Positions 16,204-57,420 of a DNA stretch of 64,000 bases are shown here, piece after piece. Position 1 is the first letter of the stretch, and each line of letters starts with the position of its first letter. A model generated the notes under the pieces. It was not told the DNA's origin. It searched no databases and saw nothing but the letters and a program-made list of their open reading frames with translations. The stretch covers positions 9,602-73,601 of the forward strand of contig CAOKEO010000003.1 of the NCBI GenBank assembly GCA_948467495.1, written 5' to 3'. This DNA comes from an uncultured Clostridium sp. Lineage in GTDB: Bacteria > Bacillota > Clostridia > TANB77 > CAG-508. The translations under genes and the position numbers were made by a program.

Positions 16204-16219
16204 TATCAATTTTATATTT

Positions 16220-34240: not shown

Positions 34241-34290
34241 ATTTAAATTATATAAAATTATTTTAACCAATAATTTTATATAATTTAAAT
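34241..34290. repeat. perfect 22-bp-arm palindrome
   Basis: ATTTAAATTATATAAAATTATT-TTAACC-AATAATTTTATATAATTTAAAT. Confidence 0.85.
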
Positions 34291-34462
34291 GATGTAGGTT
34301 GTTCCAATTCGCACTCGCTTTGCTCGTTTTGCTGTCCACTGTTAAAGCTTTGCTTGTTACAGTGGCAGTATGCAGTAGCTGGTCGCTTACGCGGTATTTC
34401 AAAAATAATATATTAAACTTTCACTGTAAAAAGGAATATTAATAATGCTGAACAGTAACACA

Positions 34463-34527
34463 ATTCAGAAGTTTTGTTTTTTGCAATAAAAAATATAGAA
34501 ACTTTCTAATTGGAATATATCACTTCT
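34463..34527 (+). repeat. orphan copy of the TAGAAACTTTCTA upstream element
   Basis: CAGAAGTTTTGTTTTTTGCAATAAAAAATATAGAAACTTTCTAATTGGAATATATCACTTCTGATAGTTAC. No promoter hexamers at the +58 position. Confidence 0.6.
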
Positions 34528-34584
34528 GATAGTTACAAAAAAATTTCGACATATGTTAATATAGGTTCACTTCACAACAATTGA

Positions 34585-39065: not shown

Positions 39066-39189
39066 TTTTTTCACCTTCCTTTTTCTAATGACAAGGGACA
39101 CTCTTTTCTATTGGTTTATCCACTTGAGTTAAGGAATGTCCCTTTCCCCTAGTGAATTAGTGCTTACCCTATTTTATAAATTTTTCTTA

Positions 39190-40137: not shown

Positions 40138-40165
40138 TTTTACCTCCTAATATTTTAAAAAATTA

Positions 40166-40792
40166 TTATTTTGAGTAAAGCTCTACTATTAAATGTTCTT
40201 CAATTGGAATATCTATATCTTCTCTAGATGCTAATCTGATGACTTTACCGCTTACGTTTGCATTGTCTTTTTCTAGCCATTCTGGAACTGGTCTTTTACT
40301 TGATTCTTCTACATTTATTTTGATAGTAGCATTATCTTTTTTACTTTCTCTTACTGTAATAACATCTCCTGCTTTTACTAGATAAGATGGAATATCTACT
40401 TTTTTACCATTTACTTCAAATTGAGCATGATTTACGAATTGTCTTGCTTGTGCTCTCGATGTTCCAAATCCTAATCGATACACTACATTATCTAATCTAC
40501 TTTCTAATATTTGTAATAAATTTTCACCAGTTACACCTTTTTTATTAGAAGCCATTTCGAAGTATTTTCTAAATTGTTTTTCTCCTACCCCATAATATGC
40601 TTTTGTTTTTTGTTTTTCTCTTAATTGCATTCCGTATTCAGAAAGTTTTGCTCTTTTTTGTCCATGTTGACCTGGTGCATAGTTTCTTCTAGAAATACTA
40701 CATTTATCGGTATAACATCTTTCACCTTTTAAGAACAATTTTTGTCCTTCTCTACGACATCTACGACATTGTTCGTCTTTATATCTTGCCAT
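40166..40792 (-). CDS. rpsD: 30S ribosomal protein S4
   Basis: [26 protein letters not shown]... Start ATG 40792 with AAAGGAG upstream. Confidence 0.96.
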
Positions 40793-40864
40793 TTTCTTAC
40801 TCCTTTCTTCTAATGACAAGGGATACACTAATGTGTTGACCCTTACTTAATTTTTCTATCCATT

Positions 40865-41260
40865 TTATACTCTTCTTCTTTTTGGTGGTCTACAACCATT
40901 GTGTGGTATTGGTGTCACATCTTTAATGCTACTTAATTCAAGACCTGCTGTTTGAAGAGCACGAATTGCTGCTTCTCTACCTGAACCAGGCCCTTTTACA
41001 AATACTTCTACTGATTTTAATCCATGTTCCATAGCAGCTTTAGCAGCTGTTTCTGCAACTTGACCTGCTGCATATGGTGTACTTTTTCTTGAACCTTTAA
41101 ATCCTAATTCTCCAGCACTTCCCCATGCGATTGCATTTCCTTGTGTATCTGTAATAGTAACGATTGTATTATTAAAACTAGAATGAATATGTGCAGCTCC
41201 TTTTTCAATGTTTTTCCTATTTCTTCTAGCTACTTTTTTCGTTGTTACATTTTTAGCCAT
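40865..41260 (-). CDS. rpsK: 30S ribosomal protein S11
   Basis: [18 protein letters not shown]...[16 protein letters not shown]. Confidence 0.97.
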
Positions 41261-41396
41261 TTTGCTTTTTCCTCCTTATTCAAAAATTTCATTCTGAATT
41301 TCTATCTTTCTTTTAAGAAAATTTTTCACTGATTCTATAAAATTGATTAAAAATTATTTTACAATTAGCAAATTTAACCTTTTATCAATTGCTATG

Positions 41397-41583
41397 AAAT
41401 TGATTAAAAATAGTAAGATGTGCAATTTTCACATTCATTTTAATCCGAAGGTGTACATTGGTACATCGAGGTTATGATGATTACAATCTCACTTAGTTCA
41501 ATTGCATAAGTTATCTGTAGTCTGCTTTGCTTCACACAGCTAACTCAAAATTGTGCAGATTGCTGCTTTCAATCGATTTCACT
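41397..41583. repeat. composite repeat: long imperfect palindrome (core GAAGGTGTAC-ATTG-GTACATCGAGG) with a 68-bp CACAATCTCAC..CACACAGC module (41479..41546) inserted in its right arm
   Basis: The arms GAAATTGATTAAAAA.. and ..CTTTCAATCGATTTC are complementary. The inserted module recurs at six other sites. Confidence 0.75.
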
Positions 41584-41952
41584 CTATTTTTTGCTTTTGC
41601 TAACCAACTTCCTAGGACCCTTTCTAGTTCTAGCATTCGTTTTAGTTCTTTGTCCTCTAACAGGAAGACCTCTTCTATGTCTTAGTCCTCTGTAGCATCC
41701 TATTTCAGTAAGTCTTTTGATATTAAGAGCAACTTCTCTTCTCAAGTCTCCCTCTACTGTATATGATTCGTCAATTACTTTTCTAATATCATTTACTTGA
41801 TCATCTGTTAAATCTTTAATTCTAGTATCTGGATTTATACCAGCTTTTTCAAGAATTTTTCTAGAACTTGATACGCCTATACCATAAATGTAGGTAAGTC
41901 CTATTTCCACTCTTTTTTCCTTTGGTAAATCTACTCCTGCTATACGAGCCAT
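41584..41952 (-). CDS. rpsM: 30S ribosomal protein S13
   Basis: [26 protein letters not shown]... GGAGGTG 9 nt upstream of ATG 41952. Confidence 0.97.
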
Positions 41953-42177
41953 ATTTTTTTGCACCTCCAAATTTTTTAATACTTACAAATTCGCTTTGCT
42001 CATCTGTATCAATTTTTTATTTGTCCTAAAAACATTTAAAGGTGAAATGCTACTGGTGTTTACCCCAGTCTCTTTAACGTTTTAAGACATATATATAAAC
42101 ACAAATTTGATATGTAACCCCTATTTTACAAAGGCTCACAGCCGCTACCTAATTTGTGTTATGAACAAATATAAGGA

Positions 42178-42291
42178 TTAACCTTGTCTTTGTTTGTGTT
42201 TAGGGTTTTCACAAATAACTCTAATCACACCTTTTCTTTTTATAATTTTGCATTTATCACATATTTTCTTTACTGATGGTCTTACTTTCAT
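42178..42291 (-). CDS. rpmJ: 50S ribosomal protein L36
   Basis: My translation is [37 protein letters not shown]. It is below the ORF-track size cut-off. GAGGAGGTG upstream. Confidence 0.93.
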
Positions 42292-42511
42292 TTCTGCACC
42301 TCCTCTTTCTTGACAGGGGACACACCTTACTGTGTTGTTTTTTACTTAGGTTAAGGAATGTCTCCTCCCCTTAGATTAAGTGTCTCTACTTTTTAGTCCT
42401 CTGTTTTGTAGTTTCTATATTGGGTTAATTTTTAACTTTTTTACTATCCATACCAAAACAAATAAAATTATTGTTGTTCATTCCTGATTGCTCAAGCAAC
42501 AAGGTAATCAT

Positions 42512-42730
42512 TTACTTTGCTCTCCAAGTAATTCTTCCTCTTGTTAAGTCATAAGGTGACAACTCTACTTTCACCTTATCTCCTGGTAAAATTTTAATAT
42601 AGTTCATTCTCAATTTTCCAGAAATATGAGCTAATATCTGATGTCCATTTTCAAGTTCCACTTTGAAATTAGTATTTGGTAAAGATTCTACTACTTTTCC
42701 CTCTACCTCAATCACATCTTCTTTCGCCAA
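42512..42730 (-). CDS. infA: translation initiation factor IF-1
   Basis: (M)[52 protein letters not shown]... TTG start 42730 with AAGGAGGG 7 nt upstream. Confidence 0.95.
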
Positions 42731-42819
42731 TTTTTTTCCCTCCTTAAAGAGCACTTTTCCTTGATTATTATGCAAAATATGGCTATTTTGCATAATAACT
42801 ATTAGATTATATACTATTT

Positions 42820-43590
42820 TTAAAGTATTGTCAATATTTCCGGCTCTTTTTCTGTAATTAAAATGGTATTTTCATAGTGAGCTGCCAAACTCCCATCTTC
42901 TGTCATAATCGTCCACCCATCATCTAATTCTAAAATATTAGGCTTTCCTGCTATTACCATGGGTTCTATCGCCAATGTCATACCTGGTTCCAATCGAATT
43001 CCCCTTCCTGCTTTTCCATAATTAGGAATCCCTGGATCTTCATGCATTTCTTTTCCAATGCCGTGTCCTTGAAACTCTCTTATAACAGAATATCCTTGTG
43101 AACGTACATACTCTCCAATCGCATGACATACATCACCAATTCGATTTCCTACTTTAGCATATTGAATGCCTTCAAAAAATGCTTGTTTGGTCACTTGCAC
43201 TAGTCTTTCCGCCTCTTTTGATGCTTTCCCAACAAGAAAGGTTCTAGCAGCATCGCCATGATAGCCATTTTTTAAAGCAACTGTATCAATACTTACCACA
43301 TCGCCCTCTTTTATAATTCTATCTTTAGAAGGAATTCCATGAATTACCTCATCATTAATAGAAACACAAAGGGAAGCTGGAAAAGGTGGTACTCCTTTGA
43401 TTCCAATATCATATCCTTTTTCTGCTGGAATCGCCCCCAAACTTCTCATTTTTCGTTCTGCTATTTGGTCTAATTCCCATGTTGACATCCCTGGCTTGAT
43501 ATGTTGTTCTAGTTCCTGATATGTTAATGCAACAACTTTACATACCTCTTGCATTAAAGTAATCTCTTTTTTTGACTTAATGGTTACCAA
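42820..43590 (-). CDS. map: type I methionine aminopeptidase
   Basis: 256 aa with metal ligands in ..[14 protein letters not shown].., ..GHGIG.. and ..AIEPM... TTG start. Confidence 0.93.
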
Positions 43591-43671
43591 CTTAACTCGT
43601 CCTCTCTCTTTTCTAGTTAATGCTATTTATCTACCTAAGGTGTATCTATTATTTTTTACACCTTAAATAGA

Positions 43672-44331
43672 TTACACTGATTTTATGATATCTTCTGCTA
43701 CATCTTTTCCCATCCTATTAATAGAAGTACTTACTGTCTCTGTTCTTAAAACTCCTTTGTTTTCGTAGTATTCTACTAATGGGCTGGTTTGTTCTTCGTA
43801 AATTTGTAATCTCTTATGAATTGCCCCTGAATTACAATCATCTTCTCTTTGTTTCAAAGAAGAACCACATTTATCGCAAATCCCATCTACTTTTGGTGGA
43901 TTTAATTTAATATTATAAGTTGCTTTACAATCTTGATTCGTACATACTCTTCTTGTTAGCATTCTATCAATCAACTCTTCTTTTGGTGTTTGTAAATTAA
44001 TGACTAAATCTACTTTTTTTCCAAACTCTTGTAAAATTTCATCTAATTTTTCAGCTTGTTGTATGGTTCTTGGAAAACCATCTAAAATAGCACCATTTTG
44101 TGCATCCTCTTCTTTTAAACGATTGATTACCATAGGAACCGTTATCTCATCTGGTACCAATTCTCCTTTTGCCATATATTCATTTGCTTTCATTCCTAAT
44201 TCTGTTTTTTCACTAAGATTTTTTCTGAAAATATCCCCTGTTGATATCTGTGGCCACCCCTTTTGTTGGCTAATTAGTCCTGCTACTGTTCCCTTTCCTG
44301 TCCCTTGTGCTCCTAACATGATAATTACCAT
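43672..44331 (-). CDS. adk: adenylate kinase (Cys4 zinc lid)
   Basis: MVIIMLGAQGTGKGT P-loop, lid CTNQDCKATYN...CDKCGSSL. Confidence 0.93.
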   Translation of the reverse strand: MVIIMLGAQGTGKGTVAGLISQQKGWPQISTGDIFRKNLSEKTELGMKANEYMAKGELVPDEITVPMVINRLKEEDAQNGAILDGFPRTIQQAEKLDEILQEFGKKVDLVINLQTPKEELIDRMLTRRVCTNQDCKATYNIKLNPPKVDGICDKCGSSLKQREDDCNSGAIHKRLQIYEEQTSPLVEYYENKGVLRTETVSTSINRMGKDVAEDIIKSV

Positions 44332-44608
44332 ATAAATCCCTCTTTTCATCTTATAAAAATTAGATTATTATATAAATTGTCTAAAACGCAATTAATAATC
44401 TTTATCATATCTATTCTTTTCCTATTCATAAACATGATAAAAATTATTAAATAGAACAACAGTGGCATGTTAAAATTTCTTCACCTTTTAGATTAGTTTT
44501 CATGCCACACCCGTTGTTCGTTCGCCAAAATTGCAAGCAATTTTCTGTAAAATGCTTTCTATTATAGGAAATTCAGAGAATTTTCCTATAATAGAACAAA
44601 ACTAAGAT

Positions 44609-45928
44609 TTATTCTAAGAAACCTTTATAGTGTCTCATCGCTAATTGAGATTCTAGTTGTTGTACCGTTTCTAAAGCAACTCCCACAACAATTAAGATAG
44701 ATGTCCCACCAAATGCAATATTTAGATTGGTAAATCTCAATAACATTGGCAAGATAGCTATTACTGCTAAGAATAATCCTCCAAATACCGTTAATTTAGA
44801 TATAATAGATGATAAATATTCAGTGGTTGGTTTACCAGCTCTAATTCCTGGTATAAATCCGCCATTTTTCTTAATATTATTGGATACTTCTGCTGGATTA
44901 AAAGTAGCATACGTATAGAAAAAAGTAAATCCAACAATTAATAGTAAATAAACAAGAGCATTTGCTATCGAATAGCTAATTCCTACATCAGATGTAGAAG
45001 TAGCAATTGAAAAATTATATAATCCTGCTAAAAATCCCGTATGACTTGCTATATCTGGTACAAAAATTTGAATAATCATAGCTGGAAATGTCATAAAAGA
45101 AGAAGCAAAAATAACTGGCATAACTCCTGCCATAGCAAGTTTTAATGGAATATGTGTACTTTGTGCACCTACCATTTTTCTTCCCACTACTTTTTTAGAA
45201 TATTGTACTGGTACTCTTCTTTCTGCTTGTTGAACAAATACTACTCCTGCTACTAATACTAAAGCACCTATAACAATTCCAATTGCTGTCAATAATCCTG
45301 TTGTGCTAAAGCCTTGTTCTGTCATTATTTGATTCCATAAAGTTGGCAGACCACTTGGTAATCTTGAAATAATACCAATAAAGATTAATAAAGAAATTCC
45401 ATTTCCAATTCCTTTATTGGTAATTTGGTCTCCTAACCACATAAGAACAGATGTACCTGCTACTAGTCCAACCACTACTAATGAACCTGTTAGGAAACTT
45501 TGATTCACAAATATACCAGAAGATTTATAAGATAAATAAACTCCAATTGCTTCTACTAACGCTAAAATAATAGTTAATATTTTGGTATATCTATTTATTT
45601 TTTGTCTTCCTTCTTCTCCGCCTTCTTTGGTCAATTTTTCTAAAGCTGGTATAATCATAGCCAATAGTTGAATCACAATAGAGGCTGTTATGTATGGACT
45701 AATTGACATAGCAAAAACAGAAAATCTAGAAAATGCCCCTCCTGAAATCATATCAATTAATCCTGCAAATCCATTCGTATTTCCCATTGCTTCATTTAGT
45801 GCTACACTATTTACACCTGGTACTGTAATAAAGCACCCAAGCCTAAATACAACAATTAGCACTAATGTGTATAATAGTCTTTTTCTTACATCTGGCGTCT
45901 TTATTGCATTTTTGATTGTTTTAAACAA
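44609..45928 (-). CDS. secY: preprotein translocase subunit SecY
   Basis: 439 aa, 10 TM helices, typical SecY sequence. TTG start directly after the rplO stop with GAGGTGG upstream. Confidence 0.96.
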   Translation of the reverse strand: MFKTIKNAIKTPDVRKRLLYTLVLIVVFRLGCFITVPGVNSVALNEAMGNTNGFAGLIDMISGGAFSRFSVFAMSISPYITASIVIQLLAMIIPALEKLTKEGGEEGRQKINRYTKILTIILALVEAIGVYLSYKSSGIFVNQSFLTGSLVVVGLVAGTSVLMWLGDQITNKGIGNGISLLIFIGIISRLPSGLPTLWNQIMTEQGFSTTGLLTAIGIVIGALVLVAGVVFVQQAERRVPVQYSKKVVGRKMVGAQSTHIPLKLAMAGVMPVIFASSFMTFPAMIIQIFVPDIASHTGFLAGLYNFSIATSTSDVGISYSIANALVYLLLIVGFTFFYTYATFNPAEVSNNIKKNGGFIPGIRAGKPTTEYLSSIISKLTVFGGLFLAVIAILPMLLRFTNLNIAFGGTSILIVVGVALETVQQLESQLAMRHYKGFLE

Positions 45929-46363
45929 TTAAACCACCTCAGCCTTTCCGCCTAAAGCTTCAATTGCTTCTTTGGCTTTTGCTGTAAATCTTTTTGCTTT
46001 AATATTTAACTTCTTGTCTAATTTTCCTGTTGCTAACACTACGATTCCATCATTAACTTTTCCGATAATTCCTTCTGCCAATAAGGTTTCTGCTGTTACT
46101 TCGGTAGCTTTTGATAGATTTAACATTTTTAATGTTACCTCTGTATAAGTTTTGGCATGAATATTGGTGAAACCTCTTTTTGGTAATCTTCTATATAATG
46201 GTGTTTGACCACCTTCAAAACCTCTTCTTACGCCTCCACCACTTCTTGCTTTTTGTCCTTTATGTCCTCTTCCAGATGTCTTTCCATTTCCAGAAGCCAT
46301 TCCACGACCTACTCTATTTCTCTTTACTTTACCTACAGTTGGTTTTAACTCATTTATTTTCAT
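45929..46363 (-). CDS. rplO: 50S ribosomal protein L15
   Basis: [53 protein letters not shown] upstream of ATG 46363. Confidence 0.95.
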
Positions 46364-46419
46364 TTGGTATTTTGCACCTCCTCTTTCTAAGTTAGCCGTT
46401 AGCGACAAAGGAGCTTTAC

Positions 46420-46636
46420 GGATAACTTATGCAAAATGCGTAAGCATTTTGTAATCCTTAATTTCCTTCTTTTGCCTTTCTCTACCTATGATGAATTATG
46501 GATAACATGCACAAAATGCGCAAGCATTTTGTAATCCTTAATTTCCTTCTTCTGCCTTTCTCTACCTATGATGAATTATGGATAACATGCAAAATGCGTA
46601 AGCATTTTGTAATCCTTAATTCTCTTCTTTGCCTCT
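46420..46636. repeat. tandem repeat, 80-bp period, 2.7 copies, occupying the position where rpmD (L30) normally lies
   Basis: Units start at 46420, 46500 and 46580. Each has an 8-bp hairpin CAAAATGC-GTAA/GCAA-GCATTTTG. Confidence 0.9.
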
Positions 46637-46650
46637 TAGCTATATTCACA

Positions 46651-47136
46651 TTATAAAATATCTTCTACTTTTTTACCTCTCTTTTTAGCCACTTGTTCTA
46701 CTGTTTGCATAGCCTTTAATCCTTCAATTGTAGCATAAACAACATTTCTTGGATTATTGGTTCCAATAACTTTTGTTCTAATATTTCTATAACCAGCTAG
46801 TTCCATAACTGGTCTTACGCTTCCACCTGCTATGATACCAGTACCAACTGCTGCTGGTTTTAGCATAACTTTAGCACTACCAAAAGTCCCAACATATTCA
46901 TGAGGTACAGTTGTTTCAACGATTGGCACTTCCACTAAGTTCTTTTTCGCTTCTTGGATTGCTTTTTTGATAGCATCTGGAACTTCTGCTGCTTTACCAT
47001 TTCCTACACCTACATGACCATTTTCGTCTCCTACTACTACGACAGCACTAAATCTAAAAGTTCTACCACCTTTAACAACTTTAGCAACTCTATTAATAGC
47101 TACAACCTTTTCTTTTAATTCATTTTTCTCTTCCAT
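46651..47136 (-). CDS. rpsE: 30S ribosomal protein S5
   Basis: [26 protein letters not shown].... Confidence 0.97.
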
Positions 47137-47229
47137 AGGTTTTTGTTAATCCTCCTTTTCTTGTTTTTGTCAAGGGACACTTTATTTATCCATAAGTGTT
47201 TACCCTATCTTAATTTCTGATATTTATTT

Positions 47230-47589
47230 TTAGAACTTAAGTCCACCTTCTCTTGCTGCTTCTGCTAGTTCTTTAACAACACCATGATAAATATATCCAC
47301 CACGGTCAAAAACAACGGTTTCAATCTTTTTATCAGCTGCTTTTTTAGCAATTAAAGTACCTAATTCTTTAGCGGCTTCTTTATTAGCATGTTTTGTTTT
47401 GATTTCCTTATCTAATGTTGAAGCTGATACTAATGTATTTCCTGCAACATCATCGATAATTTGTACATATAAATTTGTATTACTTCTATATATACATAAT
47501 CTTGGTCTTTCTAGTGTTCCAGATATCTTTCTTCTTACACGAATGTGTCTTCTCGTTCTTTCCATTTTTCTATCTGTCTTTTTAACCAT
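47230..47589 (-). CDS. rplR: 50S ribosomal protein L18
   Basis: [25 protein letters not shown]...[27 protein letters not shown]. Confidence 0.97.
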
Positions 47590-47632
47590 TTCCTTACTCC
47601 TTTCTAAAAATTGAGTTTTTACTATTCATTCA

Positions 47633-47759
47633 TAATTCAAATCAAATTTGATATATTGTGCATTTTTCAGATTGATTACAAGCCGAAGGTGTACGTTGGT
47701 ACATCGAGGTTTGAAATCAATATGGAAAATGTACAAAATGTTAATTTTCATTTGAATTA
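47633..47759. repeat. 127-nt imperfect palindrome filling the rplF-rplR spacer
   Basis: Pairing partners sum to 95392 (e.g. 47681:47711). Inner hairpin GGTGTAC-GTTG-GTACATC. 5 G:T pairs and no A:C pairs on the plus strand. Confidence 0.85.
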
Positions 47760-47761
47760 GT

Positions 47762-48298
47762 TTATTTTCCAGTCTTACCTTCCTTACGTCTAATAACCTC
47801 ATCAGCGTATTTAATCCCTTTTCCTCTATACACTTCTGGTGGTCTTTTCATTCTAATAACTGCTGCTGTTTGACCAACTAATTCTTTATCAATTCCATTT
47901 ACAATAATCGTATTAGCATTTGGAACATCAAAAGTAATTCCATCTGGTGCTTCAAAAATAACTGGATGTGAATAACCTAAAGTTAAATTTAAGTTATTTC
48001 CTTGTTTTGCTACTCTATATCCAACACCATTAATTTGTAATTCTTTACTATAGCTACTGGTTACACCAATAATCATATTATTGATTAATGTCCTAGTTAA
48101 GCCATGTAAGCTTCTGTTAGCTGGTTCATCATCTTTTCTAGTAACTGTAATGATATTATCTTCCATTTTAACAGAAATATTTTTATGTATTTCTCTTGCT
48201 AATGTACCTTTTGGTCCTGTTACAGTAATATTTTGTCCTTCTATTTTCACTTGTACTTCTGATGGTACTGTGATAGGTTTATTTCCTATTCTTGACAT
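47762..48298 (-). CDS. rplF: 50S ribosomal protein L6
   Basis: MSRIGNKPITVPSEVQVKIEGQNITVTGPKG.... Confidence 0.97.
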   Translation of the reverse strand: MSRIGNKPITVPSEVQVKIEGQNITVTGPKGTLAREIHKNISVKMEDNIITVTRKDDEPANRSLHGLTRTLINNMIIGVTSSYSKELQINGVGYRVAKQGNNLNLTLGYSHPVIFEAPDGITFDVPNANTIIVNGIDKELVGQTAAVIRMKRPPEVYRGKGIKYADEVIRRKEGKTGK

Positions 48299-48380
48299 TA
48301 TTTTCCCTCCTTTTTTAATGATTACAATCTCACTTTGCTCGATTGCATAAATTATTTGTAGTTCGCTTCACACAACTAAC

Positions 48381-48779
48381 TTACCATACATAGGCTAATA
48401 CTTCTCCACCAACACCTAATTCTCTAGCTTCTTTATCTGTTTTTAGTCCTTTTGATGTAGAAATGATAGCAATTCCTAATCCATTTAATACCTTTGGTAA
48501 TTCTTCTTTGGATGCGTACACTCTTAATCCTGGTTTACTAATTCTTTTTAAACCATCAATTACTCTGGTTCCTTTTTCATCATATTTTAGTGTAATTCTT
48601 ATGATTCCTTGTGTATCATCTTTGATTTCTTCAAAAGATTTTATATATCCTTCTTTGAATAGAATTTCAGCAATTCCTCGTTTCATATTGGAAGCTGGAA
48701 CATCTACTGTTTTATGCTTTGAACTATTTGCATTTCTAATTCTTGTTAACATATCTGCAATTGGATCTGTAATGTTCAT
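48381..48779 (-). CDS. rpsH: 30S ribosomal protein S8
   Basis: [18 protein letters not shown]...GGEVLAYVW. Confidence 0.97.
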
Positions 48780-48866
48780 GAATTACTTACCTCCTTTTCT
48801 TCTTTCTTAGCAAGGGGCTTATTTCCCCTTCTTATCTTTATTTTAGCATTTATTTATTTGTTAAAA

Positions 48867-48981
48867 AAATCAAAATTAGTATATTGTGCATTTTTGTTAA
48901 GTTTTTCAAGATGAAGGCGTACACGAGTACGTCGAAATTTGAAAAACTTACTGAAAATGTGCAAGATGCTGATTTTCATTT
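48867..48981. repeat. 115-nt imperfect palindrome in the rpsN-rpsH spacer
   Basis: Pairing partners sum to 97848. Inner hairpin GGCGTAC-ACGA-GTACGTC. 7 G:T pairs and no A:C pairs on the plus strand. Confidence 0.85.
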
Positions 48982-48987
48982 ATTTTA

Positions 48988-49173
48988 TTACCAGCTGGCT
49001 TTTTTTACACCTGGAATCTCTCCCTTATGTGCTAACTCTCTAAAACATACACGGCATATACCATATTTTCTGATATAGCTATGTGGTCTTCCACATAATT
49101 TACATCTGTTGTATTCTCTTGTTTTATATTTTTGTGGTCTAGCTTGTTTTATTTTCATTGACTTTTTAGCCAT
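48988..49173 (-). CDS. rpsN: 30S ribosomal protein S14, zinc-binding type Z
   Basis: 61 aa, [23 protein letters not shown]. Confidence 0.96.
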
Positions 49174-49194
49174 AATTTTACTCCTTTCTTACAG

Positions 49195-49477
49195 TTCACA
49201 ATCTCACTTTGTTCGATTGCGTAAGTCATCTGTAATTCGCTTAGCTTCACACAGCCTACTACTGAATGTTCACAATCTCACTCGTTCGATTGCGTAAGTC
49301 ATCCGTAATTCGCTTCGCTTCACACAGCCTACTACTGAATGTTCACAATCTCACTTCGTTCGATTGCGTAAGTCATCTGTAGTTCGCTTCGCTTCACACA
49401 GCCTACTACTGAATGTTCACAATCTCACTCGTTCGATTGCGTAAGTCATCTGTAGTTCGCTTCGCTTCACACAGCTG
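49195..49477. repeat. tandem array (3.8 copies, 73-74 bp) of the CACAATCTCAC..GATTGCGTAAGTCATCTGTA..CACACAGC module
   Basis: Units start at about 49195, 49269, 49342 and 49416. The last unit overlaps the final codons and stop of rplE. Confidence 0.92.
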
Positions 49478-50012
49478 ACTTAAATGGCATTCCTAATGCT
49501 TGTAATAATTCTTTTGATTCTTCGTCTGTTTTGGCTGTTGTTACAAATATGATGTCCATTCCTCTTAATTTATCAACTTTGTCATATTCAATTTCAGGGA
49601 ATATTAATTGTTCTTTTACTCCCATAGAGTAATTTCCTCTACCATCAAAAGAGTTTGTTGATACTCCTCTAAAATCTCTTACTCTTGGAAGGGCTACATT
49701 GAATAATTTGTAAGCAAAGTCATACATTTTGTCTGCTCTTAATGTTACTTTACATCCTATGTTCACACCTTCTCTTAATTTAAATGCTGCAATTGATTTT
49801 TTTGCTTTTGTAATAACTGGTTTTTGTCCTGTTATTTGCATTAAATCATTCATCGCATTTTCCAATGCTTTTGGATTTTCTTTTAAATCTCCTAATCCTA
49901 TATTAATTACTATCTTATCAAGTTTTGGTACTTGCATCACTGATTTATATTCAAATTTTTTCATTAATGCTGGGATTACTTCCTTTTCATATTGTTCTCT
50001 TAATTTTTCCAT
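49467..50012 (-). CDS. rplE: 50S ribosomal protein L5
   Basis: [20 protein letters not shown]...[15 protein letters not shown]. Start ATG 50012. Confidence 0.95.
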
Positions 50013-50038
50013 AATCAACGAATCCTCCTTTCTTTCTT

Positions 50039-50347
50039 CTATTTTATGGTCGCACCGCATTTTTTACAAACACGTACTTTTTGGTCTTTTTCTATTTGAT
50101 ATCCAATTTTTGTAGCTTTACCACATTTTGAACATACTACATTTACTTTTGAACTTGGTATAGCACATTCAATTGCTATGATTCCGCTTTCTTCTCCTTG
50201 TTTTCTGGCTTTTACATGTTTTTTTCTAACATTTACACCTTTTACAATGATTTTATCAGTCTTTGGATTGATTTGTAACACTTCTCCTGTTTTACCTTTG
50301 TCATTTCCTGATAAAACTTGAACGTTATCACCTTTTTTGATTCTCAT
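50039..50347 (-). CDS. rplX: 50S ribosomal protein L24
   Basis: [23 protein letters not shown] (KOW motif). Confidence 0.96.
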
Positions 50348-50400
50348 TTAGGAATTTCCTCCTTTTCTTAGTTTTTATTTTTATTCTCTGTTGTAAAACG

Positions 50401-50640
50401 AATTAGAATTAGTATATTGTGCATTTTGCTGATACTGTTAAGCTTTAGCTGTTACAGTATCAGTATGCAAATGAATTTTATATTCATTTGCCCTCATTTC
50501 ACTAACTTCAAGCTGAAGGCGTACTCTTGTATGTCGAAATTATAATGACTACAATCTCACTTCGTTCGATTACATAAGTTATCTGTAGTTCGCTTTGCTT
50601 CACACAGCTAACTCAAAAATGCACAAGATGCTGATTATAA
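50401..50640. repeat. composite repeat: outer palindrome carrying two different inserted modules
   Basis: Left arm 50401..50430, double-hairpin module 50431..50512, core hairpin GAAGGCGTAC-TCTT-GTATGTCGAAA, CACAATCTCAC module 50547..50614, right arm AAAAATGCACAAGATGCTGATT. Confidence 0.75.
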
Positions 50641-50646
50641 TTTGTT

Positions 50647-51015
50647 TTATAGAACTTCTGGAGCTAATGAAAGAATTTTCATATACTCCTTCTCTCTTAA
50701 CTCTCTTGCAACTGGTCCAAAGATACGAGTTCCCTTTGGCGTTCCATCTTCTTTAATAATAACAGCTGCATTTTCATCAAATTTTATATATGAACCATCT
50801 GCTCTTCTTAATCCACTCTTAGATCTAACAATAACAGCTTTTACAACATCACCTTTTTTAACAACGCCACCTGGTGTTGCTGATTTAACAGAAGCAACTA
50901 TAACATCTCCTATATTAGATGTTTTTCTAAATGATCCTCCTAAACATCTGATACACATGATTTCTTTCGCCCCTGTGTTGTCTGCTACTTTTAATCTTGA
51001 TTGTTGTTGTATCAT
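50647..51015 (-). CDS. rplN: 50S ribosomal protein L14
   Basis: [23 protein letters not shown].... Confidence 0.98.
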
Positions 51016-51031
51016 TTTGGTTCCTCCTTTC

Positions 51032-51295
51032 CTACTTTATATCTGCTTTTTCTACAACTTCAACTACTCTCCATCTTTTATCTTTAGAAAGTGGTCTTGT
51101 TTCCATTACTTTTACTTTATCACCCATTTGGCAAACATTTTCTTCATCATGTGCTTTTAATTTGTAAGTTCTTTTTACTGTTTTACCATATACTTTATGA
51201 CTAACACTAGTTTGAACAGCTACTACTACTGTTTTATCCATCTTATTAGATGTTACTGTACCAATCATAACTTTACGAAGATTTCTTTCTTCCAT
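51032..51295 (-). CDS. rpsQ: 30S ribosomal protein S17
   Basis: [16 protein letters not shown]...[23 protein letters not shown]. Confidence 0.97.
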
Positions 51296-51421
51296 TTAGA
51301 TTTCTCCTTTCTAATAATGTCAGGGGACACACCTCTTCCCCTTAGGTATTCCACTTAAGTTTGGGAAATAGCCCCTCTCCTTGCTTTTAAGTGTTTACCT
51401 TTTTGCTAACATATTTCATTT

Positions 51422-51628
51422 TTATGCTTTAGCATCTAGCATTTTTCTTTCTGTCAATACGGTATTTATTTTAGCTATATCTTTTTTTACCTCTTTTATT
51501 TTCATAGGATTATCTAATCCGTTGGTAGCTAAACTAAATTTTAATTTGAACAATTCTGTTTTTAGTTCACCTAATTCTTTCTCTAAATCTGGTGAAGACA
51601 TTTCTCTTATTTTATTTATCTTCATCAT
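51422..51628 (-). CDS. rpmC: 50S ribosomal protein L29
   Basis: [34 protein letters not shown] 51628 is preferred over the track's GTG at 51634. Confidence 0.93.
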
Positions 51629-52055
51629 TTTCACCTACCTTTTCTGTTTCTCTTGCTACAAATTTTGTTTTGTTAGGTAGTTTGTTCATAGCAAGTCTTA
51701 AGGCTTCTTTTGCAGTTTCTTCTGATACTCCAGAAATCTCAAACATTACTCTTCCTGGTTTTACAACTGCAACCCAATATTCTGGCGCACCTTTACCTTT
51801 ACCCATACGAGTTCCAATAGGTTTTGCTGTAATTGGTTTGTCTGGAAAGATTTTAATCCAAACTTTTCCACCTCTTTTTATATAACGAGTCATAGCAATT
51901 CTGGCTGCTTCAATTTGATTTCCTGTAATTAAAGCACCTGTTACTGCTTGGATTCCATATTCTCCATCTGTAACTTTATTTCCTCTTGTTGCCTTTCCTC
52001 TCATTCTACCTTTTTGTACTTTTCTATGTTTTGTTCTTTTTGGCATTAATGGCAT
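51612..52055 (-). CDS. rplP: 50S ribosomal protein L16
   Basis: [22 protein letters not shown].... Confidence 0.97.
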
Positions 52056-52711
52056 TATTGGTCTCCTCCTTCCATTTTCTTCTCTGGAAGAACTTCTCCT
52101 TTATAAATCCAAACTTTTACACCGATTTTACCATAGGTTGTATCTGCTTCTGCAAATCCATAATCAATATCAGCTCTTAAAGTTTGTAGTGGAATATTTC
52201 CTTCTTTATAGAATTCAGTTCTAGCCATGTCAGCTCCACCTAATCTTCCAGATACAGCAGTTTTAATTCCTAAAGCACCTGCTTTCATAGATTTTTGCAT
52301 ACATTGTTTCATGGCTCTTCTGAATGAAATTCTTCTTTCTAATTGTCCTGCAATATTTTCTGCTACTAATTGAGCATCTGTATCCATATTTTTAACTTCT
52401 ACGATGTTTAAATTAACATCTTTACCAATTAATTTTGTTAATTCTGCTTTTACACTTTCTACACCTGCTCCACCTTTTCCAATAACAATTCCTGGTTTTG
52501 CCGTGTGTAAATTAACCTTGATTGCTTTTGCTGTTCTTTCAATTTCAATTTTAGAAATACCAGCAAGATATAATTTTTTCTTTAAAAATTTACGAATCTT
52601 TTGATCTTCTACTAAATAATTTGCAAAGTTTCTTGAATCTGCATACCATTTAGAATTCCAATCTTTTATGATTCCAACTCTTACTCCTGTTGGATGTACT
52701 TTTTGTCCCAT
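52055..52711 (-). CDS. rpsC: 30S ribosomal protein S3
   Basis: [24 protein letters not shown].... Confidence 0.98.
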
Positions 52712-52718
52712 ATTATTC

Positions 52719-53084
52719 CTAGTCCTCCTTTTCTTTCAAAACTATTGTAATGTGACTTGTTCTTTTTCTAATTCTTACTGCTGAACCTTTTGCAGCTGGA
52801 CGTATTCTTTTTAAAGTTGGTCCTTGATTGCTATAGATTTCAGCAACATATAATTTCTCATGTCTCATGTCATGATTATTTTCAGCATTTGCGATAGCTG
52901 ATTTTAATAATTTCTCTATGATTTCTGATGATGCTTTTGGTGTGAATTTTACGATAGCTAAAGCTTCATCTACATCTTTTCCTCGAATTAAATCTGCTAC
53001 GATTTTAACTTTTCTAGCTGAAATCCTTGCATATTTCAAGGTTGCTTTTGCTTCGTTTCTAACTAATGTTTCTTGCTCTTGCAC
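52719..53084 (-). CDS. rplV: 50S ribosomal protein L22
   Basis: [25 protein letters not shown]... GTG start with AAGGAGG upstream. Confidence 0.95.
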
Positions 53085-53156
53085 TTTTCTTACCTCCTTA
53101 GATTAGTGTCTAGGGGCTACTTATCCATTTAAGTTTTTCCCCTTCTATTTGTCTCT

Positions 53157-53432
53157 CTATTTATTTGTTTTCTTATCTCCTGCATGACCTTTGAAGGTTC
53201 TTGTAGGAGCAAATTCACCTAATTTATGACCAATCATTTCTTCTGCTATATAAATTGGAACATGTTTTCTTCCATCATGTACAGCAATTGTATGACCAAC
53301 CATTTGTGGATATATTGTTGAAGCTCTAGACCATGTCTTTAAAACTTCTTTATTTCCAGATTCATTCATAGCTTCTACTCTTTTTAGTAGTTCTGGTGCT
53401 ACATATGGTTTTTTCTTGCTTGATCTTGACAT
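53157..53432 (-). CDS. rpsS: 30S ribosomal protein S19
   Basis: [30 protein letters not shown].... Confidence 0.97.
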
Positions 53433-53460
53433 ATTATAAATGTCCTCCCTTCTTTTTTTA

Positions 53461-53576
53461 GTAAGTTATCCGTAAAACTCACTTCGTTCGCTAACGGCTT
53501 TTCTATTGTTCACAATCTCCCTTTGGTCGATTGCGTAAGTTATCCGTAGAGCTCGCTTTGCTCGCTAACGGCTAAC
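53461..53576. repeat. 1.6 copies of the CACAATCTC..GATTGCGTAAGTTATCCGTAG..GCTAACGGCTAAC module variant
   Basis: Begins immediately after the rplB stop (TGA-GTTAGCCGTTAGCG in mRNA sense). An inverted fragment lies at 46391..46432. Confidence 0.8.
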
Positions 53577-54404
53577 TCACTTTCTTCTCTTTACAATAAA
53601 TTTATTAGATTGTTTCTTTTTATTTCTTGTTTTATATCCAAGAGCTGGTTTACCCCAAGGTGTCATTGGTCCAGCGTGTCCTACTGGTGCTCTACCTTCA
53701 CCACCACCATGAGGGTGATCTACTGGGTTCATTACAGAACCTCTAACAGTTGGTCTAATTCCCATATGTCTTTTTCTACCAGCTTTACCAATTTTAACAT
53801 TCTCATGATCACTATTTCCGATTACTCCGATAGTAGCTCTACAGGTTGCTAAAATTAATCTCATTTCTCCTGATGGAAGTCTTACATGGGCATATTTTCC
53901 TTCTTTTGCCATTAATTGTGCACTTTGTCCTGCTGCTTTTACTAATTTTCCACCTTGTTTTGGATTTAACTCAATGTTATGAATTAAAGTACCTACTGGA
54001 ATTGAACTAATTGGCATACAGTTTCCTGGTTTGATATCAGCTGTTTCTCCAGATATCACTTTATCTCCATCTTTTAATCCTTGTGGAGCTAAGATATATG
54101 CTTTTTCTCCATCTTCGTATTCCACTAATGCAATATTAGCACTTCTGTTTGGATCATATTCAATTCCTATTACAGTTGCTGCCATATCGTCTTTTCTTCT
54201 TTTAAAATCTACTATTCTATATTTTTGTCTATTTCCACCACCTTGATGTCTTACTGTGATTCTTCCATAGGAGTTTCTTCCTGCATTTTTCTTTTTCTTT
54301 GCTAATAAAGATTTCTCAGGAGTTTTCTTTGTAATTTCTCCAAAGTCTGAAACTGTCATATTTCTTCTAGATGGTGTATAGGGTTTGAAGTGTTTCATTC
54401 CCAT
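53577..54404 (-). CDS. rplB: 50S ribosomal protein L2
   Basis: [14 protein letters not shown]...[15 protein letters not shown]. Start ATG 54404 (AAAGGAG upstream). Confidence 0.96.
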
Positions 54405-54675
54405 TTTTTTCTCCTTTCTCGAATTCATGAAAAACTTCGTTTTACGTCGTTACTGATGCTATTAAAGCTTTGCTTGTTACTGCATTAGTATGCAGTTTGC
54501 GTAGCAAACTGACTTCATTAAGTTTTCCTAGTAATACTCGTTTTTGTTGAATTCTCTACTCTACTGATTGGTTTTCGAGAGTAGTTGCGGACTTTTTCCT
54601 GCTCCGCATAACAGATATTCTTTATTTTCCTGGTATTTTCCAGCTAATTTTTTTATCTAATTTCCATTTGTGTAC

Positions 54676-54868
54676 GAAATTGATTAAAAGTGATATATTG
54701 TGCATTTTGCTGATATTGTTAAGCTTCAGCTGTTACAATATCAGTATGCAAATGAATTTTATATTCATTTGCCTCCATTTTCTTAATCTTAAACTGAAGG
54801 CGTACGTTGGTACGTCGAAATTTGTAATCAATAGCGAAAATGTGCAAGATGTTGCTTTTAATCGATTT
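54676..54868. repeat. composite repeat: outer palindrome with inserted double-hairpin module
   Basis: Arms GAAATTGATTAAAAG.. and ..CTTTTAATCGATTTC. Inserted module 54711..54796. Core GAAGGCGTAC-GTTG-GTACGTCGAAA. Ends at the rplW stop codon. Confidence 0.8.
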
Positions 54869-55216
54869 CTAGGCACCCATGAATTCGTCAATACTATCTT
54901 TGTATTTTTTCGTAACTTTTGTTGCTTTTCCACCTTTTGCTAAATAAGAGGTATCTTCTGGATTAGTATCAATTGTAACAATTGCTTTCTTCCAATCTGA
55001 AGTCTTACCAATGTGGTAACCAACTCTTTTCTTCTTACCATTTACATTCATGGTATTCACTTTTAAAACTTTTACCTCAAAAAGTTTTTCAACAGCTTTT
55101 GCTATTTCCACTTTTGTTGCTTTTTTATTTACTTTGAAAGTGTATTTTCCTTCTTGCAATTGATCATTACTTTTTTCTGTAACAATTGGTGCTACAATAA
55201 TCTCTTCTGGTTTCAT
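54869..55216 (-). CDS. rplW: 50S ribosomal protein L23
   Basis: IVAPIVTEKSNDQLQEGKYTFKVNKKATKVEIAKAVEKLFEVKV.... Confidence 0.95.
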   Translation of the reverse strand: MKPEEIIVAPIVTEKSNDQLQEGKYTFKVNKKATKVEIAKAVEKLFEVKVLKVNTMNVNGKKKRVGYHIGKTSDWKKAIVTIDTNPEDTSYLAKGGKATKVTKKYKDSIDEFMGA

Positions 55217-55840
55217 TTAAGCGTACACCTCCTCTAATTTTTTAACAGTATCTACTGGTAAAATTAGATTTGTATATTTTAATAAATCAAATACATTAAT
55301 ATTATTGGCAGTAATTGTTTTAACTCCTTCAATATTTCTAGATGACATAAAAACATTTTTATTGTTTTCTGGAAGAACGATTAATGTTTTTCCTTCTACT
55401 TTTAAATCTGTTAAAGCCTTTACCATTGTCTTTGTTTTGATTTCTTTTACTTCTAATTTATCTACTACTGTTAATTCTTTTTCTAACACTTTAGAACTTA
55501 AGATTGATTTAATTGCCAATCTTCTTTCTTTTTTATTAACGGTATATTTGTAAGAACGAGGTTTTGGTCCTAATGCGATACCACCTTTAATCCATTGTGG
55601 GCTTCTTGTAGAACCTTGTCTTGCTCTACCTGTTCCTTTTTGTCTCCATGGTTTTTTACCACCACCAGAAACTTCTGCTCTTGTTTTAGTACTTCCAGTA
55701 CCTTGTCTTTGATTAGCTAAATAGTTTACTAACACACTATGTACAATGTTTTCATTTGGTTCAATTCCAAATACAGTGTCAGCTAATTCTATATCACTTA
55801 CTTTTTTACCTTTTAAATCATATACATCTACTTTTGGCAT
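55217..55840 (-). CDS. rplD: 50S ribosomal protein L4
   Basis: RQGTGSTKTRAEVSGGGKKPWRQKGTGRARQGSTRSPQW. Confidence 0.97.
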   Translation of the reverse strand: MPKVDVYDLKGKKVSDIELADTVFGIEPNENIVHSVLVNYLANQRQGTGSTKTRAEVSGGGKKPWRQKGTGRARQGSTRSPQWIKGGIALGPKPRSYKYTVNKKERRLAIKSILSSKVLEKELTVVDKLEVKEIKTKTMVKALTDLKVEGKTLIVLPENNKNVFMSSRNIEGVKTITANNINVFDLLKYTNLILPVDTVKKLEEVYA

Positions 55841-55858
55841 TATCTTTTCCTCCTTCCT

Positions 55859-56491
55859 CTATTTACTAGCCTTTACAGCTGATTTTACTTTTAGGATAGC
55901 TCCTTTTGCTCCTGGAACGCTTCCTTTTACTAAAATTACATTTTTATCCATATCTACTCTTACAACATCTAAGTTTTGAATTGTAATAGTAACTCTTCCC
56001 ATATGTCCTGGTAATTTCTTACCTTTAAATACTCTACCTGGTGTTGAAGTAGATCCCATTGAACCTGGTCTTCTATGATACATAGAACCATGTCCCATTG
56101 GTCCTCTGTGTTGACCATGTCTTTTGATAACACCTTGGAACCCTTTTCCTTTTGATATTCCTTGTACATCTACTTTTTCTCCTGCTTCGAAAATGTCTGC
56201 TTTGATTTCATCTCCTACTTTGTAGCCTGCTACATCTTCTACTCTGAATTCTCTTAGATGTTTTTTATTAGCAAGTTTTGCTTTTGCAAAATGTCCTGCT
56301 TCTGGTTTGTTTATATGTTTATCTTTGATTTCTCCGTATCCTAATTGAATGGCATCATATCCATCTGTTTCTACTGTTTTTACTTGTGCTACAATATTTC
56401 CTGCTGTTTCGATAACAGTAACTGGAATGACGTTTCCTTTTTCATCGAAGATTTGTGTCATACCGATTTTTTTTCCGATAATTCCTTTCAT
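55859..56491 (-). CDS. rplC: 50S ribosomal protein L3
   Basis: [28 protein letters not shown].... Confidence 0.98.
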
Positions 56492-56728
56492 TTTCTTTCC
56501 TCCTAACTATTGGCTGAAAATAATAATTCTAAACTTCGTCTCACTTCGTTAAATTTCGTTCTAAAATCCCCGACCTACACAAGTACGCCTCCGGTTTTAT
56601 CACTTATTTGCCTTGTGATACTCGTTTTAAATTCTTATTTAGATTTCGGCTTGGTTTTGCTGAGGCTGTTAAATTTGTTTGTCACAGCATCAGTATGCAA
56701 ATACATTAAGCATTTGTTTTGCTTAATC

Positions 56729-57052
56729 TTACAATTTTATCTCTATGTCAACACCAGCTGGTAACTCTAATTTCATTAGACTGTCCACTGTTTTTTGTGT
56801 TGGATAAAGTATATCGATTACTCTTTTATGGGTTCTCATTTCAAATTGTTCTCTTGAATCTTTGTATTTGTGTGGAGAACGTAAAATTGTTACGATTTCT
56901 TTTTGTGTTGGTAATGGAATAGGACCTGAAACCTTTGCTCCTGTTTTTTTAGCAGTATCTACTATCTTTTCAGCAGACTGATCTAAAACTACATGGTCAT
57001 ACGCTTTCAATCTTATTCTAATTTTCTCACTTGTTGCTATTGTGTTTGCCAT
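56729..57052 (-). CDS. rpsJ: 30S ribosomal protein S10
   Basis: [40 protein letters not shown]. Confidence 0.98.
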
Positions 57053-57067
57053 TGTAATTTTCCCTCC

Positions 57068-57203
57068 TTCTTTTTATGTTCACAATCTCATTTTATTCGA
57101 TTGCGTAAGTTATCTGTAACTCGCTTCGCTTCGCACAGCTACTACTGTTCACAATCTCATTTTATTCGATTGCGTAAGTTATCTGTAGCTTGCTTCGCTT
57201 CGC
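57068..57203. repeat. two tandem 69-bp copies of the CACAATCTCA..GATTGCGTAAGTTATCTGTA..CGCACAGC module inside the S10 leader
   Basis: Units start at 57068 and 57137. The array ends 15 nt upstream of the rpsJ start codon region (SD GAAGGAGGG). Confidence 0.9.
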
Positions 57204-57265
57204 ACAGCTAACTTAATTACCTTGGCAAGTTAAAACGCACTCTGGTGTTTCGAATATCACCTATA

Positions 57266-57297: not shown

Positions 57298-57420
57298 ATA
57301 AGTACATTTCTTACCGCCTGGTCTTTGCCATAACATACTCCACCAAAGTTCCCTCCATTCCATATTTCCGTAGGAATGTAGCCACATTTGGCTTCAACGC
57401 TTATTCATTCATGCTTATCT

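Follow-up and report, generated by a model that had tools for sequence, protein, structure and literature searches.

Mosaic intergenic repeats have been known for decades, and how they move and why their hosts tolerate them remain largely open. The BIME/REP elements of enterobacteria are extragenic mosaics of palindromic units (PU) and short motifs in regular combinations, which lie after stop codons in operons, are transcribed and show no target-site duplications; their strand-specific hairpins are thought to be handled as single-stranded DNA (ssDNA) by a single-copy Y1 enzyme, RAYT/TnpA-REP (PMC6006769, PMC3116915). BOX elements (boxA-boxB(n)-boxC) of the pneumococcus, together with RUP and SPRITE, are composites in a low-GC Gram-positive bacterium with variable tandem internal modules, co-occurring families and a mobility below that of insertion sequences (IS), and in the predicted fold of BOX the internal module can be absent or multiplied with the remainder undisturbed (PMC3049150). 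Here we describe a composite resembling both systems in the rplN-rplX spacer of the S10-spc-alpha ribosomal protein operon, within a 64-kb stretch of DNA from an uncultured Clostridium sp. (64,000 nucleotides, hereafter the window). We lean towards reading this spacer as a mosaic in which three independent families of interspersed repeats meet, all of them small, non-coding and non-autonomous; they would be of the BIME/BOX/REP kind and would have been assembled through successive insertions without target-site duplication. The composite itself is best read as a new example of mosaic repeats like BIME/REP, BOX, NIME and Correia elements (PMC3049150). What is new here is that the modules are strictly polar and that the families fold on opposite strands.

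The S10-spc-alpha operon occupies 39190-57052 on the minus strand of the window, in a compact host genome of about 30% GC, and the GC skew of the plus strand is strongly negative across the whole window. The rplN-rplX spacer (50348-50646, 299 nt) harbors a composite of 256 nt (50394-50649), in which a foldback of about 120 nt, here called outer, is interrupted by two cassettes, the double-hairpin cassette (DH) and the CAC cassette (CACAATCTCAC). We detected the modules by direct reading of the loci, by self-BLAST within the window and by nhmmer profile searches; the self-BLAST E-values, 1e-12 to 1e-38 for a search space of 64 kb, exclude chance similarity, and the nhmmer values range from 1e-15 to 1e-32. 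The original prediction held that a palindrome seen uninterrupted at 47633 and 48867 is split in this spacer by two modules, placed at 50431-50512 and 50547-50614, and that DH alone or CAC alone is inserted at two other loci of the operon. All of these arrangements were confirmed, with coordinates that agree to a few bases and the limits given in Table 1. The identical 299-nt spacer is present in four independent metagenome assemblies of the same species (99.6% identity over 3.3 kb), showing that the composite is real and not an assembly artefact, and five further contigs match the 3' part of the spacer exactly. Within the window, modules occupy 8 of the 22 intergenic regions of the operon and 1 of the 35 outside it (p = 0.0013).

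For comparison, we mapped the ribosomal protein genes in 80 related loci, all from metagenome-assembled genomes (MAGs) of gut Clostridia, and compared the rplN-rplX spacer across 58 related genomes. The SecY protein of the window shares 97% identity with its counterpart in an uncultured gut Clostridium MAG and 90% with the one in Clostridium sp. CAG:343. Spacer lengths among the related loci range from 19 to 299 nt for rplN-rplX, from 15 to 293 nt for rplE-rpsN and from 28 to 526 nt for rplW-rplB. In its empty state, the rplN-rplX region is a bare Shine-Dalgarno spacer, 19 nt at its shortest (L043, L051, L056). Among the filled states, outer stands alone in L020 and L033, encloses CAC in L005, encloses DH but not the neighboring CAC in L002, and encloses both cassettes in the window; L003 has only CAC, which starts at the stop codon. 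In L007 we found a deletion derivative that has lost the stretch from the start of CAC to DH, between two GTTAG repeats. The rpsN-rpsH spacer likewise contains outer alone, outer plus CAC (L011, L019), outer plus DH (L005) or two outers (L002); the rplE-rpsN spacer contains no CAC copy, a remnant (L005), or one, two or four copies; and at rplF-rplR, L001 and L007 have deletion derivatives that lack the outer core. Presence/absence polymorphism, one of the checks proposed with the original prediction, is found among relatives, with spacers ranging from empty to filled.

Outer matches occur in 48 sources, compared to 13 for CAC and 8 for DH, and the distinct copies with an exact core comprise 52 plain outers against about 8 composites. 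The wider occurrence of outer, mostly as plain copies, shows that outer is the older host and that the cassettes are later additions. At the sites where composites carry a cassette, plain outer copies retain a complete, covarying inner stem. The insertion points of CAC and DH are fixed and are mirror images of each other, both at the junction between the distal and the inner stem of outer: in mRNA sense, CAC always directly follows GCACAUUUU(U/A), and DH always directly precedes (C)AAAAUGCAC. CAC is not a plain insertion, since it swaps out about 5-15 nt of the inner arm (L005 versus L020; the window versus L002). At the junctions, DH starts with TTTTG, which is also the end of the outer arm, and the CAC end AATGA resembles the inner arm; this microhomology would fit recombination or template switching as well as it fits transposition. 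Composites are present in outer copies of differing arm subfamilies, yet all contain A-type CAC (TACAATC...GCATAAGTTATC), which points to site-specific insertion or exchange between copies. Both cassettes also occur outside any outer copy, where they are free-standing or, in the case of CAC, arranged in tandem; the tandem arrays are B-type. Together with the states of the orthologous spacers and the recurrent, clean boundaries, these copies support the original view that the combinatorial occupancy reflects mobile or recombining cassettes, and "mobile or recombining" is as much as should be claimed. The outcome that would have spoken against it, modules that are divergent parts of one ancestral sequence with no clean boundaries, was not observed.

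The orientation of the modules is nearly uniform. CAC is oriented alike in 10/10 copies in the window and in 34/35 copies across the operon loci, and DH in 13/13 copies relative to the operon; the asymmetric outer core, located by its sequence pattern, has the same orientation in 51/51 cases in the related loci and lies on the plus strand in 5/5 cases in the window. We folded both strands of every distinct module copy and compared their stabilities. Outer reaches -55.3 kcal/mol on the plus strand of the window, which is antisense to the operon, compared to -27.1 kcal/mol in mRNA sense, and the plus strand folds better in all 41 copies. DH is also more stable on the antisense plus strand (12 of 13 copies), whereas CAC folds better in mRNA sense (-15.5 versus -9.6 kcal/mol; 99 of 100 copies). 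The consensus fold of outer shows compensatory changes at 29 of 52 pairs and three near-invariant wobble pairs (G.U in 47/47, U.G in 44/47 and G.U in 45/47 copies), the latter two because TGTGCA is present on both arms of one strand. In CAC, the base of hairpin 1 (UAAGUUAGCYGU...ACRGAUAACUUA) includes the upstream stop codon, hairpin 2 keeps a G.U pair in 67 of 71 copies, and three pairs show compensatory UA<->CG switches. Hairpin 1 of DH has a G.U pair in 13 of 15 copies and a compensatory AU<->GC pair. These wobble and compensatory features cannot stem from the palindromy of duplex DNA; they point to selection acting on one strand, as RNA or as ssDNA.

Scanning the genome collection with a CAC pattern gave 60 stretches, all in one clade of uncultured gut Clostridia MAGs. 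Matches are spread over many contigs, where they frequently lie at the ends and frequently form tandem copies. Outside the operon loci, 98 of 102 CAC copies lie in sense orientation between co-directional genes. Hairpin 1 often begins at or overlaps the upstream stop codon, and the next Shine-Dalgarno sequence is left free. At the 3' end of rplE (49467-49486 in the window), the reading frame enters the first CAC unit and ends at an internal TGA, giving MPFKSAV* instead of the MPFKN* of genomes with an empty spacer; by the predicted translation, ribosomal protein uL5 (rplE) has had its C-terminus and its stop codon replaced by those of the repeat. The free-standing and tandem CAC copies and the free-standing DH-like copies listed in Table 1 are additional to the loci of the original prediction.

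Table 1. Outer, DH and CAC modules in the window (positions are those of the 64-kb stretch).
Feature	Position	Strand	Remarks
Composite, rplN-rplX: outer left (5') arm	50394-50428	+	TAAAACGAATTAGAATTAGTATATTGTGCATTTTG; conserved TGTGCA; ends TTTTG; pairs with 50616-50649; aligns with intact copies
Composite, rplN-rplX: DH cassette, two hairpins	50429-50498	folds on +	at distal/inner stem junction of outer; nhmmer 2e-18
Composite, rplN-rplX: outer inner stem and conserved apical core hairpin	50499-50548	+	TGAAGGCGTAC-TCTT-GTATGTCGAAA
Composite, rplN-rplX: CAC cassette, A-type, two hairpins	50545-50615	- (folds in mRNA sense)	takes the place of the outer part of the inner 3' arm; nhmmer 7e-21
Composite, rplN-rplX: outer right (3') arm	50616-50649	+	50647-50649 is the complement of the rplN stop codon
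Intact outer, rplF-rplR spacer	47633-47759	+	read directly, profile match, alignment
Intact outer, rpsN-rpsH spacer	48861-48987	+	read directly, profile match, alignment
Outer with DH only, rplW-rplB spacer	54676-54868	+	read directly, self-BLAST, profile match
Outer with CAC only, rpsM-rpsK spacer	41397-41583	+	read directly, self-BLAST, profile match
Four tandem B-type CAC units, rplE-rpsN spacer	49190-49486	-	first unit gives the rplE stop codon (TGA, 49467-49469)
Two tandem CAC units upstream of rpsJ	57076-57216	-	profile search
Free-standing CAC, fills rpsH-rplF spacer	48316-48387	-	begins at the rpsH stop codon
Free-standing CAC variant	53504-53583	-	begins at the rplB stop codon; then partial second unit 53460-53500
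Free-standing DH-like copy, rplW-rplB spacer	54448-54526	+	
Free-standing DH-like copy, rpsJ-rplC spacer	56655-56731	+	
Free-standing DH-like copy between recD2-like and comF-like genes	34327-34406	+	sole module copy of the window outside the ribosomal protein operon

Other repeats share the spacers of the operon with these modules. The rpsE-rplO spacer, in which rpmD is absent, is filled at 46416-46653 by three tandem 80-nt units, each consisting of the 3' half of a CAC variant in antisense orientation and the Shine-Dalgarno-like AAGGAAATTAAGG. This array is common only to the window and its closest relative L001, and in several relatives rpsE and rplO overlap. A fourth repeat family (..AAGGTAAACAC..GGGGA..TGTCCCCTGACA) is found at 51296-51421 (rpmC-rpsQ spacer), 39089-39152 and 42311-42374, and in relatives it occupies many ribosomal protein spacers (rplN-rplX, rpsQ-rplN, rpsH-rplF). 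The S10-Clostridia ribosomal leader gave a weak hit below threshold at 57311-57405 on the minus strand (21 bits, E = 1.4); if this hit is real, the tandem CAC units upstream of rpsJ would fall between the leader and the rpsJ ribosome-binding site.

The core hairpin of outer also recurs in other phyla. A scan of the genome collection with the core pattern GAAGGYGTAC-N3-7-GTACRTCGA matched more than 120 loci, compared to about 87 expected by chance on our own estimate, which assumes uniform base composition; a few matches within high-GC coding regions look like chance. At most of the matched loci, the motif caps a long hairpin, and the fold of the motif strand is the more stable one in 44/49 cases with a GC content of at least 0.5, in 50/51 with 0.34-0.5 and in 10/10 with less than 0.34. 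They are carried by Acutalibacteraceae/Oscillospiraceae MAGs, Bifidobacterium, Coriobacteriia, Delta- and Gammaproteobacteria, Geobacter and Acidobacteriota. These cross-phylum hosts also share the flanking motifs CAAGGCG ... GCAACGC, and the genes beside the elements are unrelated housekeeping genes. The motif strand is antisense between co-directional genes in 19 cases, lies in convergent regions in 20 and is sense between co-directional genes in one. The Acutalibacteraceae version is an element of about 300-350 nt with terminal inverted repeats and an extra hairpin 5' of the core, which is the topological position of DH. A multicopy element of this size, which is not in Rfam, was seen in L149, L161, L190, L243 and about 30 other Acutalibacteraceae loci; its terminal inverted repeats read GGGGATAGGAAAAAAAGATGCAGA / TCTGCGCTTTTTTTACAGCCCC, a hairpin built from that terminal sequence lies ahead of it, and it contains the core hairpin and a variable second domain.

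Searches for known relatives of these elements were negative. Rfam 15, scanned at gathering score and at E <= 10, gave only two tRNAs in the window, with nothing overlapping the modules at E <= 10, and no match covering the related elements in eight loci from other phyla. The core pattern had nine matches in viral contigs, about chance level, the high-GC relative of outer had no match in plasmids, and the literature on the core sequence and on repeats in ribosomal operons yielded nothing relevant. All cross-phylum loci were chosen by the core pattern itself, so that homology across phyla can only be inferred. Tentatively, outer may be the AT-rich member of an undescribed cross-phylum family of strand-specific hairpin elements. 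The proposed hallmark of such a family would be an almost invariant apical module, made up of a 7-bp stem (GGYGUAC/GUACRUC) in which one G.U pair is fixed, an internal loop GAA/GA, and a closing pair that covaries. It would top foldbacks of 120-350 nt that are multicopy and intergenic, point with their 3' end toward the 3' end of a gene and carry extra hairpins at a fixed junction.

In the reading that we lean towards, the repeats would have colonised the one place of a compact genome that tolerates them, the short gap separating a stop codon from the following Shine-Dalgarno sequence. The comparisons show that the outer foldback came first, with its structure on the antisense strand. The antisense-folding DH and the sense-folding CAC, whose first stem holds the stop codon, were added later at mirror-image positions; no target-site duplication was made, a little arm sequence was lost, and the joints carry microhomology. 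Copies have been gained, lost, partly deleted and tandemly amplified between species and are fixed within the species of the window. We infer that the modules spread via single-stranded intermediates, or else through template switching or illegitimate recombination among copies, and consider a cut-and-paste DDE transposase unlikely. Strand polarity, wobble pairs, subterminal hairpins and the lack of target-site duplications suggest that REP/BIME and IS200/IS605-type elements are the closest likeness. The strand-specific hairpins, the lack of target-site duplications and, for CAC, the subterminal hairpins on the lagging-strand template and the head-to-tail arrays would fit a single-strand (HUH-type) or template-switch process better than a DDE one. 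Outer appears to be kept in operons only in the orientation that spares the mRNA its -55 kcal/mol hairpin (-27 kcal/mol in sense). Its uniform antisense orientation is most simply explained by selection against such a hairpin in a highly expressed mRNA, and outer may also have an antisense RNA function.

Each of the described systems is matched only in part. Strand-specific hairpins compatible with single-stranded recognition, as in REP/REPIN-RAYT systems, are present in outer, CAC and DH. In contrast to BIME/REP, the modules lack a GT[AG]G foot (CCGA or CTGA stands 5' of the core hairpin) and a REPtron, they are very AT-rich, and their families fold on opposite strands; moreover, outer consists of a single long foldback whose apical hairpin is conserved and not of two short REPs. 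BOX has no apparent sequence relationship to the modules, by appearance only, and its terminal modules differ from each other, whereas outer is a near-complete palindrome. To our knowledge, strict sense/antisense polarity has not been described for BOX. CAC has the layout of IS200/IS605-derived elements, with a hairpin at either end of the mRNA-sense strand (hairpin 1 5', hairpin 2 3'), no visible duplication, and the hairpin strand corresponding to the lagging-strand template. Its 5' flank is usually TTAAG or TTGAG and is also part of hairpin 1; TTAAG complements an internal CUUA and the 3' end of CAC resembles the flank, which could explain the head-to-tail arrays. Unlike in IS200/IS605, no cognate TnpA was found, outer and DH are on the other strand, and the target and cleavage sites of CAC are putative. 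Like the Correia/NIME elements of Neisseria and other MITEs (miniature inverted-repeat transposable elements; RUP, ERIC), which have full-length or terminal inverted repeats, are intergenic and transcribed and exert orientation-dependent effects on mRNA, outer is palindromic over its full length. Many outer copies end in TA...TA, and a TA duplication is indistinguishable from the palindrome in such AT-rich sequence. In MITEs, however, the termini are the most conserved part and in outer it is the centre, no related IS was found, and CAC and DH lack terminal inverted repeats.

As the original prediction stated, the only IS remnants in the window are dead: a truncated UPF0236 fragment at 37792-38214 on the minus strand covers residues 16-135 of a 400-position profile, and we take UPF0236 to be the ISLre2 transposase family. 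Repeats related to this fragment lie at 16459-16647 and 37663-38083, with a second related fragment near 16.5 kb. No full-length IS with matching termini was found in the window, and the outer hidden Markov model had no matches there beyond the operon spacers. A single-copy Y1_Tnp gene (IS200-like HUH) with a C-terminal helix-turn-helix (HTH) domain lies between the recD2-like and comF-like genes in many relatives (L022, 19808-20584; L279-L358) and is present in many MAGs of the clade, CAC-rich ones included. The syntenic interval of the window (33804-34786) lacks this gene and contains a DH-like repeat and AT-rich non-coding DNA instead. The protein resembles subclass 2.1 of Quentin et al. 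2018, which has no known REPs (PMC6006769). We rejected a link between this gene and the modules, as it shows no REPtron-like association with them within 1.5 kb in 80 genomes.

Several of our results weigh against successive insertion of mobile repeats. Neither autonomous element nor cognate enzyme was found; the window has only the dead ISLre2 fragment, and the search for an element sharing the module termini that was proposed with the original prediction gave none there. IS200-type TnpA was not detected in 2.6 Mb of related loci with a probe sequence, and no copy of CAC, DH or outer lies within 1.5 kb of Y1_Tnp-HTH in 80 genomes. No target-site duplication, a further proposed check, flanks CAC or DH in junction comparisons, in which the filled sites belong to other species than the empty ones and neither are clean; neither a circle junction nor an excision footprint was seen. 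Assemblies of the same species showed no presence/absence polymorphism, so that the polymorphism found among relatives does not extend to this species; with the cassettes fixed there, recent or current mobility is unproven. Replication-linked and transcription-linked polarity are not separable, as 0 of the 102 CAC copies outside the operon loci adjoin lagging-strand genes. The outer hairpin lies on the leading-strand template, opposite to the insertion into the lagging-strand template predicted for IS608-type elements. Finally, strong covariation and invariant G.U pairs could equally belong to functional RNAs.

This last point leads to a different explanation, in which the modules, and CAC above all, are functional cis-acting structures of the operon mRNA that serve processing, stability or translational uncoupling and were repeated through duplication and gene conversion. 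CAC folds in sense in 99 of 100 copies with compensatory changes and conserved G.U pairs, begins at the stop codon, spares the next Shine-Dalgarno sequence, lies nearly always between co-directional genes and is fixed within the species, and the modules are enriched in a highly expressed operon; effects of REP/BIME, ERIC and Correia elements on mRNA decay or attenuation (PMC3049150) provide precedents. We nevertheless consider this explanation unlikely, because orthologous spacers of close relatives function with 15-30 nt and without any element, a single site can hold anything from 0 to 4 copies, decayed remnants are present, and outer and DH fold on the strand that is wrong for an mRNA function. 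That strand would suit a structured RNA gene or riboregulator antisense to the operon, with outer belonging to a widespread RNA family and DH being a lineage-specific expansion helix at a multi-helix junction. The structure, the invariant wobble pairs and the G.A features of outer are on the antisense strand, the apical hairpin and its GAA/GA internal loop tip long strand-specific hairpins in other phyla, and the extra hairpin of the Acutalibacteraceae element takes the position of DH. Three window copies also have -10-like TATATT boxes in their left arm, each with a -35 spaced 16-17 nt away. However, no conserved promoter was found and promoter-like sites show no overall enrichment (45 versus 63 expected), for which reason we also rejected an antisense promoter. 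The many copies per genome, often at contig ends, the free-standing DH copies and the lack of an Rfam family match make an RNA gene rather improbable.

Deletion instead of insertion could in principle produce the same set of states, if the composite were ancestral and plain outer, outer with DH and outer with CAC were its internal deletion products. Such deletions do happen, as the derivatives in L007 and L001 demonstrate, but CAC and DH occur alone far from outer arms and in tandem arrays, plain outer is present in far more genomes than either cassette, and plain copies have an intact, covarying inner stem where the cassettes sit. This reading was already disfavoured and is, in our judgement, very improbable.

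A number of other identities were considered and rejected. A ribosomal protein autoregulatory leader does not agree with the presence of the same modules before many different genes and beside unrelated housekeeping genes, nor with the antisense fold of outer. Intrinsic terminators are at odds with the position of the modules inside the operon, and a terminator scan gave small sub-hairpins only (on the minus strand the core at 48918-48931 and 54801-54814, and on the plus strand DH hairpin 2 at 54748-54772). Inspected by eye, the core has neither a hammerhead core nor the bulge required of a K-turn, and the Rfam models for 6S and SRP gave no match. Two outer copies have ATG frames of 42-45 codons, which might have represented a type I toxin or another small open reading frame (ORF), yet other copies do not conserve the start codon.

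Two further observations concern genes of the window and its relatives. An N6/N4 DNA methylase with a RAMA domain is encoded at 17013-18092 on the plus strand, in a rare stretch of plus-strand genes that adjoins two tRNA genes (16127-16302). Between secY and adk, where the window has a spacer of 259 nt, L003, L006, L008, L013, L016 and L020 contain 1-4.7 kb of extra co-oriented genes; none of the inserted ORFs, which were left unannotated, flags itself as an IS.

Read as a mosaic of mobile or recombining repeats, the rplN-rplX spacer adds two twists to the mosaics known in E. coli and pneumococcus, namely that its modules lie on opposite strands and that the core of outer recurs in other phyla. 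If the cross-phylum family is true, the nesting seen in the window would be the local case of a general property, and such conservation would imply recognition by a conserved protein, for example an HUH-type ssDNA enzyme, or a conserved RNA function. In that case the core would mark a widespread element with a conserved recognition hairpin that is absent from Rfam 15. The window also shows how heavily a core operon can carry structured DNA, to the point that uL5 takes its stop codon and last residues from a repeat. The clade represents an unusually clean natural experiment, in which the same approximately 27 ribosomal protein spacers can be followed through dozens of species, from the empty to every filled state. 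With three or more repeat families of opposite polarity, fixed junctions, tandem amplification and decay, it makes ssDNA, RNA and recombination models of such repeats testable.

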